Positions 43,649 through 44,461 of a stretch of DNA of 64,000 bases are shown piece by piece. The position numbers were made by a program, and so were the translations under genes. Within the stretch, counting starts at the first letter, position 1; the number at the start of each line of letters is the position of its first letter. The stretch is from a phage. The notes beneath the pieces were generated by a model. It was given only the letters and a program-made list of their open reading frames with translations. It made no database searches and was not told the DNA's origin. The DNA is taken from the NCBI GenBank assembly GCA_027337125.1, contig GCA_027337125.1_3057.1. The stretch is one strand, 5' to 3'.

Positions 43649-44461
43649 TTATTCGACCTTCTTAAATTTGCAATTGTCAAAATGGTATCTTTTAGCGTGA
43701 GACTTATCCATGATTTTAGAGCAGTGCGGGCATTTTAATTTTTCTCTGCTATGAGATACACCCGTGATAACTTTGCATTTATCGCCGTGGTATTTTCCAT
43801 AATTTCCTACATCACATATAATTCCGCAATGCGGGCAATTTCTCTTTTCGACTTTTGCAAGACCCTTAGATAGTTTATTTAAATACTTTTCGTATTTTTG
43901 GGGGTCACTTTTAAGCTCAGACCAAAAATCTTTCATCTGTTTAGAACATCTTTCTTTATATTCTAACATTTCGTTTTCTGATAACGATTCCAAATATTTC
44001 ACTGAAGCTTTTCGAATATTTGCATTAACTTCTTTTCTCTTTTCATCTGTCCATAAAGATTTAGTTTTTTTAATGCCTTTTCCGGCTTTTTTAATTCGTT
44101 CCTGTTTTAAATTTGGTGATAGATTCGCCCAAAACTTTTTAATGGTTTCTGATCTAATTTTAGATGTTTCCTCTTTAATCCATCCGTAATCTTTACTTAC
44201 AATTCTCTGCTCTTTTGTACCCTTGGAGAATTTTATTAAAGCATAAGCCATTTCAGAATTTCGGTGTATTTTAAAAAGAAGCTCATGTGCAAAATAGTGT
44301 TCTCTTGCTGTCAGTAAAACCTTGTTTTCTCTAGAATCATCTCCTCCCATGGATTTTGGGACAATATGGTGTGATTCTGTATAATAATCTAATTTTTTCT
44401 TATTAAGACCTCTTTTAAGAGATCTTTCTATAAGAGAGTCGTAAATTTTAGTATAATTCAT
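43649..44461 (-). CDS. freestanding HNH homing endonuclease (Mob-like) with C-terminal Cys-rich repeats
   Basis: 270 aa; [36 protein letters not shown]; two CPHC...C Zn-ribbon-like motifs; ATGA overlap with gp13 stop; inserted between genes 13 and 14. Confidence 0.85.

Follow-up and report, generated by a model that had tools for sequence, protein, structure and literature searches.

What is a 270-codon reading frame doing between neck genes 13 and 14 of a T4-like phage, when these two genes directly abut in most of its close relatives? An earlier note on this DNA had proposed that the frame is a Mob-like HNH homing endonuclease gene, inserted into an essential late operon with a minimal footprint and keeping the ribosome-binding site (RBS) of gene 14 in its own 3′ end. 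Here we describe the protein, the two junctions and the distribution of this homing endonuclease gene (HEG), and weigh homing against other explanations for its presence.

The window (the whole 64-kb stretch of DNA that was analysed) belongs to a Tequatrovirus (T4-like), and its late-gene region is read on the minus strand. In the order of reading, this region holds wac (45420-46877), gene 13 (44458..45387), HEG (43649..44461; ATG start, 270 aa plus stop in the ORF list), gene 14 (42877..43647), gene 15 (42017-42835), gene 16 (41514-42008), and gene 17 (39698-41530), all on the minus strand. Gene 13 encodes the head-tail adaptor or neck protein gp13 (309 aa; PHROG 211 ‘head-tail adaptor Ad2’, E = 2.8e-43), which is 98% identical to T4 gp13. 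Gene 14 encodes the head closure or neck protein gp14 (256 aa; PHROG 679 ‘head closure Hc2’, E = 5.7e-116), which is 98.8% identical to its T4 counterpart. Gene 14 truly starts at 43647 (MATYDK); the ORF list extends it mechanically to a TTG at 43680. At 45400-45417 (minus strand), between wac and gene 13, a GC-rich hairpin (TGGGGCC GCAA GGCCCCA) precedes a T-rich run. This element, which is upstream of the 13-HEG-14 block, has the look of a terminator or of a sequence that stabilises RNA.

In the raw sequence, read in the sense orientation, the gene 13/HEG junction is ...GTTGGATGAATTAT... (also given as ...CCTCCAGTGGGAGTGTTAGTTGGATGAATTAT...), where the HEG ATG (44461-44459) overlaps the gene 13 TGA (44460-44458) as ATGA. 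The HEG/gene 14 junction is ...AAGAAGGTCGAATAATATGGCT (also given as ...AAATTTAAGAAGGTCGAATAATATGGCT...). Here the HEG TAA (43651-43649) is followed by a single T (43648) and then by the gene 14 ATG (43647-43645), leaving 1 nt from stop to start. The Shine-Dalgarno-like (SD) element for gene 14, AAGAAGG (43657..43663, minus strand), falls within the final codons of HEG (KKV) and precedes the gene 14 ATG by 9 nt. The frame of 270 aa, its HNH and two CPHC...C motifs, the ATGA overlap, the 1-nt spacing and the internal AAGAAGG are thus all present in the sequence as the earlier note had described them.

A predicted HNH nuclease of the Mob class

The HEG protein carries a twelve-residue motif at residues 29-40, EHYFAHELL at residues 54-62, and two CPHC...H...C motifs at residues 209-229 and 244-264. 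Pfam HNH_4 (PF13395) matches residues 25-52 (E = 1.2e-5) and, at 25.6 bits, exceeds its cutoff of 22; PF01844 HNH, at 17.9, stays under its cutoff of 21.4. The protein also matches PHROG 655 ‘homing endonuclease’ (E = 1.8e-52). A large protein collection contains 413 homologues at E <= 1e-5, many of them with NUMOD3 and HNH Pfam labels, and a truncated 154-aa cluster (P0005) is found among the homologues. In an alignment of 81 near-full-length homologues, the invariant columns are E29, H31, H32, G40, N46, H55, H59, C244, C247, H260, and C264. When compared with the PDB, a profile built from these 81 sequences finds the HNH domains of McrA (EcoKMcrA, E = 1.7e-5), a group II intron maturase, and Cas8-HNH fusions.

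The AF2 model (pLDDT 93.2) combines a beta-beta-alpha core with five long helices and a pair of small zinc modules, each built as strand-strand-helix. Its HNH region comprises strands 29-32 and 47-50 and then helix 52-66, with pLDDT above 94. Together, HNH_4, the invariant columns, the model and the PDB profile matches place a predicted HNH (beta-beta-alpha-metal) nuclease core at residues ~25-66 (44264..44389, minus strand). This core passes a curated profile threshold and, on a beta-beta-alpha fold, has the catalytic His, the structural Asn, and the distal metal-ligand residue of the HNH superfamily.

The two C-terminal modules are each 21 residues long. The first CCHC module (residues 209-229; 43775..43837, minus strand) was identified in a motif scan and is modelled with pLDDT >90 as two short strands and a helix, while the second (residues 244-264; 43670..43732, minus strand) contains C244, C247, H260, and C264. 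Both modules presumably bind DNA. Members of the family have one to three CCHC modules in a motif scan. Every Pfam zinc-ribbon model falls under its threshold for the HEG protein, so the modules are defined by the invariant CCHC pattern and not by a named family. An NCBIfam search of the protein gave no meaningful match. Such a ‘beads on a string’ architecture is usual for these endonucleases (PMC2988022, PMC10448857).

The closest comparison among the T4 enzymes is MobB. BLASTP aligns the two proteins over 217 aa with 35% identity (E = 7e-33), both belong to PHROG 655, and by tblastn the N-terminal HNH regions are ~50% identical over the first 111 residues. A Foldseek search of predicted structures likewise returned T4 MobB (rmsd 2.4 Å over 129 residues, 46% identity), along with MobC and many annotated phage homing endonucleases. 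The same search against the PDB aligned only the ~56-residue HNH core, with weak E values of 0.2-0.9 that are useful only alongside the sequence-profile matches. Past about residue 215, where the HEG protein has its two CCHC zinc modules, the C-terminus of MobB cannot be aligned. The insertion sites also differ, with HEG at 13/14 and mobB at a-gt/a-gt.2, and HEG is absent from T4. The target of MobB is listed as unknown (PMC2988022).

HEG and the T4 Mob class are alike in being free-standing between conserved genes and sporadic among close relatives, and the HEG protein has the N-terminal HNH region and variable C-terminal region seen in MobA-E. We conclude that its sequence and modelled fold support a predicted HNH nuclease of the T4 Mob class. 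The earlier identification as a Mob-like HNH homing endonuclease therefore stands, given the HNH_4 score above cutoff, PHROG 655, the invariant residues, and the match to MobB in both sequence and predicted fold. Profile searches, which the earlier note had named as a way for the assignment to fail, all point in the same direction (HNH_4, PHROG 655, and the 81-homologue profile).

Three further endonuclease-like genes are located in the window. One Mob-like HNH gene (23396-24088, minus strand; 230 aa by a TTG start; PHROG 655, E = 2e-61) has NUMOD3 repeats and comes directly after a 502-aa uvsW-like ORF (24085-25593), with a 4-nt overlap; at the N-terminus it shares 36% identity with the HEG protein. 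Another (62358-63032, plus strand; PHROG 655, E = 4e-59) overlaps the end of a 275-aa gene 2-like ORF (61549-62376), and it shares 45% identity with the HEG protein over the first 113 residues. The last, a 205-aa ORF (25596-26213, minus strand), matches PHROG 314 ‘homing endonuclease’ (E = 2e-42), and its position next to uvsW suggests that it is SegE-like. Counting HEG and this ORF, the 64-kb window has four free-standing endonuclease genes.

Cassette boundaries, distribution and translation signals

A megablast search with positions 43000-45100 of the window as the query matched 505 phage records. Forty-seven of these span the entire query; the remainder match the two flanks only, over a span that is 809 nt shorter (1292 vs 2101 nt). 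The forty-seven records represent thirty-eight distinct phages, including T6, and come from Escherichia, Shigella, Salmonella, Yersinia, and Citrobacter hosts. Each genome has one copy of HEG, always between the neck genes, and the 47 records match at 96-100% DNA identity. In T6 (NC_054907.1 / MH550421.1 / AP018814.1) the gene is at ~89574-90391, between genes 13 and 14, with 99.0% nucleotide identity. The other ~458 of the 505 related Tequatrovirus records, T4, T2, and RB51 among them, lack HEG, and genes 13 and 14 directly abut. This junction comparison across T4-like genomes bears out the proposed insertion between the two neck genes. Most GenBank and RefSeq records that carry HEG already label it ‘homing endonuclease’. 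A search of the available literature turned up no paper on HEG, on any endonuclease gene at the 13/14 junction or on T6 mob-like genes.

The insert-free allele is given by T4 and RB51, in which gene 13 ends with ...CCTCCATTTGGAATTTTGGTAGGTTAA, followed by one T and the gene 14 ATG. At this native junction (...GGTAGGTTAA T ATGGCT; in T4, CCTCCATTTGGAATTTTGGTAGGTTAATATGGCT) the SD is within the upstream ORF, and is followed by the stop, 1 nt, and the ATG. We aligned the junctions of sixteen phages (eight insert-bearing and eight insert-free), and the population statistics given here rest on these 8 + 8 loci. The alignment points to a mobile cassette at 43652..44478 (minus strand), in which 827 nt stand in place of 18 nt of the insert-free allele (net +809 nt). 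Its boundaries are precise and the same in all eight sampled carriers.

At the left end of the cassette (44461..44478, minus strand), the final six codons of gene 13 are recoded to GTGGGAGTGTTAGTTGGA (VGVLVG) as compared to the T4-type TTTGGAATTTTGGTAGGT (FGILVG), and differ from the empty allele at seven of 18 nt. This 18-nt tail is the sole block of fixed differences between the eight carriers and the eight insert-free phages in the compared stretches of gene 13 (900 nt) and gene 14 (480 nt). A 53-nt probe that includes the recoded tail matches the 47 insert records at >=90.6% identity and all others at <=88.7%, so that linkage to the insert is perfect; a forty-eighth record at >=90% identity to the probe (90-95% band), from a Citrobacter phage (H220), matches only in part. 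Among the probe matches in the database, there was no insert-free phage with the recoded gene 13 tail, the combination that a resistant empty site or a clean loss of the insert would leave. The data thus support a cassette that rewrites the last six codons of gene 13 in addition to inserting, and a footprint that is not purely additive. The claim of a minimal-footprint insertion holds for the stop-1 nt-ATG layout, which is reproduced, but not for the end of gene 13, where six codons are replaced.

A similar qualification applies to the gene 14 RBS. Because the T4 and RB51 junctions already have the stop-1 nt-ATG arrangement with an internal SD, the cassette recreates the native layout with a new SD, and the old one is not retained. 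The earlier note was therefore right that the gene 14 SD is inside the HEG 3′ end, but HEG supplies this element itself, and the native SD in the gene 13 tail has been recoded. The predicted anti-SD duplex is -7.3 kcal/mol for AAGAAGG vs -6.7 for the native T4 SD, making the substitute about as strong as the original by prediction. The recoded tail also creates an SD-like element for HEG itself, GGGAG (44472-44476), 10 nt before the HEG ATG, with a predicted anti-SD pairing of -7.6 kcal/mol vs -4.9 for the T4-type tail.

HEG rides the late wac-13-14-15 operon. We found no exact late promoter (TATAAATA) on the sense strand from 39702 to 51795, and HEG therefore appears to be a promoter-less passenger of this operon. 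Allowing one mismatch in the late-promoter scan does give candidate sites, and the sigma-70 and terminator scans are at background level. Several T4 genes (mobE, mobA, segC etc.) are likewise promoter-less cassettes with overlapping stop and start codons and with host signals within the endonuclease ORF (PMC2988022). MobE, encoded between nrdA and nrdB, resembles the HEG product in being an HNH protein from a promoter-less gene in a polycistronic operon, with a start that overlaps the upstream stop; the nrdA/mobE overlap is UAAUGA (PMC2988022), and that of HEG is GGAUGA. In mobE an RNA hairpin sequesters the RBS, whereas the HEG start has no significant predicted structure (z = +1.6). Neither the HEG start nor the gene 14 start (z = +2.1) has a regulatory RNA hairpin in the style of mobE or I-TevI, and both fold worse than shuffled controls. 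An Rfam scan of the whole window gave no match. MobE activity has been shown experimentally, while nuclease activity of the HEG protein is predicted.

Mean pairwise nucleotide diversity among the eight carriers is 0.66% in the cassette, compared to 4.9% and 3.5% in the upstream and downstream flanks, respectively. Flank distances between carriers and insert-free phages equal those within each class, and several carriers find their closest flank haplotype in a phage without the insert. This combination of low insert diversity and interleaved flanks indicates that the cassette is much younger than its surroundings and uncoupled from them. Homing or recombinational spread predicts such a pattern, and these 8 + 8 loci give evidence of horizontal spread independent of the flanking genome. 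The base compositions of HEG and gene 14 are indistinguishable (31-33% GC).

Forty-three of the 47 records have the full HEG length of 813 nt. Shifted lengths are found in SHFML-26 (two records) and F1/FN (three records), both 812 nt, and in CJY920 (814 nt). In Shigella phage SHFML-26 (L106, ~1354-2165), an A-run at insert column 408 has lost 1 nt, which splits the gene into two ORFs. The SHFML-26 and F1/FN copies are each annotated as two ‘hypothetical proteins’, and these split pairs can be reannotated as frameshifted copies of HEG. The single-base indels of SHFML-26, F1/FN, and CJY920 are in homopolymer runs and could be either real decay or sequencing errors. Frameshifted copies in viable phages argue that HEG activity is dispensable for the phage. 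A separate oddity is Escherichia phage vB_EcoM_G9062 (L107), where the annotation gives a truncated gene 14 (558 nt) and megablast matches the region in two pieces, with ~55 extra bases relative to the window.

Other endonuclease genes at the 13/14 junction

Three orthologues with 52-57% identity are found in divergent metagenomic T4-like contigs. All are full-length with motifs intact, lie immediately upstream of a gp14 homologue, and have the gene 14 SD in their last codons. In two of the contigs (L112 and L113) the upstream ORF is visible, and the orthologue is downstream of a gp13 tail; the L112 copy also has the GGATGA overlap. The presence of orthologues this divergent at the same junction implies a long association of the HEG lineage with the site. 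In L111 and L113 the gene 13 tail is T4-like at the DNA level, so the recoding in the window may be a remnant of the donor or an adaptation for HEG translation, and not a requirement for immunity.

Genes of another family are also found here. GIY-YIG SegC-like genes are at the 13/14 junction of VR26, SP18, Phi1, F2, mogra, phiEC1, and several Klebsiella phages, and in T4-like contigs from IMG/VR (194-211 aa; L065:3427-4062, L074:3500-4084, L102:355-969), where the ORF overlaps the gene 14 start by 8 nt. Like HEG, these genes from other Straboviridae are directly upstream of gene 14 in the same intergenic position. In contrast to HEG, they have SegE_GIY-YIG and I-TevI DNA-binding Pfam matches, and they have no sequence similarity to the HNH gene. 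The 13/14 junction has been colonised independently by two unrelated nuclease families, and the presence of HNH and GIY-YIG genes at one junction in different genera identifies it as a recurrent landing site. Highly conserved coding blocks flank the junction, with REEL.LLDPP.GI..G at the gp13 C-terminus and LFAKLE at the gp14 N-terminus. We tentatively raise the broader idea, to which we give somewhat less than even weight, that the junction is a contested landing site across Straboviridae at which each endonuclease family supplies the translation start of gene 14.

One further contig (L095, 2978-4572) has a rearranged 13/14 region. The C-terminal segment of gp13 is partly duplicated here, and a Seg-like ORF is joined in frame to an N-terminal peptide of gp14, with a second gp14 start after it. 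This arrangement could be an assembly artefact or a real product of illegitimate recombination at an endonuclease site.

Homing and its alternatives

We consider it very probable that HEG belongs to the T4 Mob class of homing endonuclease genes, that it is free-standing and promoter-less and encodes an N-terminal HNH domain, a helical linker and two C-terminal CCHC modules, and that it homes into the insert-free 13/14 junction. By analogy with MobA, MobE, and the Seg enzymes, a carrier and an insert-free relative would infect the same cell, and the enzyme would recognise the intact junction region and nick or cut it. Recombinational repair would then copy the cassette from the carrier genome into the cut junction. 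The carrier allele itself would be immune, since a net 809 nt interrupts the site and seven of 18 adjacent positions are changed. [quoted passage not shown]

We infer the target site solely from where the cassette is inserted and from the recoded tail. For known Mob and Seg enzymes, the cut site may be hundreds of bases away from the enzyme’s own gene. Bearing on such distant cut sites, there are no fixed differences outside the recoded tail within 900 nt upstream or 480 nt downstream in the comparison of eight carriers with eight insert-free phages. The nearest parallel for the tail is the ‘intronless homing’ of SegF and SegG, where the carrier also has a substitution cluster in the adjacent conserved gene. 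If the analogy holds, the gene 13 tail substitutions (7/18 nt) would fit polymorphisms that protect the carrier’s own allele. SegF and SegG are GIY-YIG enzymes, with cleavage sites and co-conversion tracts that have been mapped experimentally, whereas the HEG protein is of the HNH type, and a link between the gene 13 tail substitutions and immunity is inferred.

One alternative is that HEG is a decaying or inactive relic that once homed and no longer cuts. It would then persist because a clean deletion would remove the gene 14 RBS and the rewritten gene 13 end, and embedded host signals of this kind, like the gene 14 SD inside the HEG ORF, have been proposed to favour retention (PMC2988022). 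The frameshifted copies in SHFML-26 and F1/FN and the truncated P0005 cluster agree with such decay. We nevertheless consider a relic unlikely. The copy in the window is intact, with every invariant catalytic residue and zinc ligand present, and 43 of 47 records keep all 813 nt. Even the orthologues at 52-57% identity are full-length, recent spread is indicated by how very little the cassette varies on unrelated flank backgrounds, and the homopolymer indels might be errors of sequencing.

Less probable still is a domesticated competition factor whose main effect, beyond its own propagation, is to benefit its carrier by damaging co-infecting relatives or by excluding their neck and packaging alleles. 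HEG is part of an essential late operon, with genes 14 and 15 between it and terminase genes 16 and 17, and HEGs near essential genes and HEG-driven competition have been described (PMC10448857, PMC11620839). Against a role of this kind, about 90% of relatives do well without HEG, and the 900 + 480 nt of flank contain no haplotype linked to the insert, so that no co-selected flanking allele is visible.

Other phage groups are known to have terminase-assisting HNH proteins, and HEG is positioned among neck and terminase genes, but a structural or packaging protein (a neck component, or a terminase-assisting HNH of the HK97 type) is effectively refuted by distribution and is to us the least probable reading, since HEG is absent from ~458 of 505 close relatives (T4, T2, and RB51 included) in which genes 13 and 14 abut, frameshifted copies are tolerated, and PHROG 655 membership is shared with two other sporadic Mob-like genes in the window. 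The conservation expected of an HK97-type terminase-associated packaging factor is likewise not seen, with HEG absent in ~90% of Tequatrovirus records and genes 14 and 15 separating it from gene 16. The earlier note had singled out a conserved structural component as the finding that would overturn its proposal, and the same absence from ~458 of the 505 records speaks against one.

Homing thus remains our preferred reading. As one more Mob-type endonuclease of a known kind, known here from its sequence, HEG has small scientific weight in itself. The anatomy of its junctions, with recoded gene 13 codons, an ATGA overlap and a substitute gene 14 RBS, shows a tidy fit into a translationally coupled essential operon without disturbance. 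The unrelated HNH and GIY-YIG genes at one junction support the view that conserved gene ends are recurrent targets of homing. Since HEG is also present in the classical phage T6, and not in T4 or T2, these ideas are testable with standard laboratory phages. If the T6-type enzyme is active, T-even crosses would be expected to show localised exclusion of T4 or T2 neck-gene markers, and the junction would offer a simple system for studying how a cassette, by rewriting an essential gene’s end, acquires an RBS of its own together with self-immunity.
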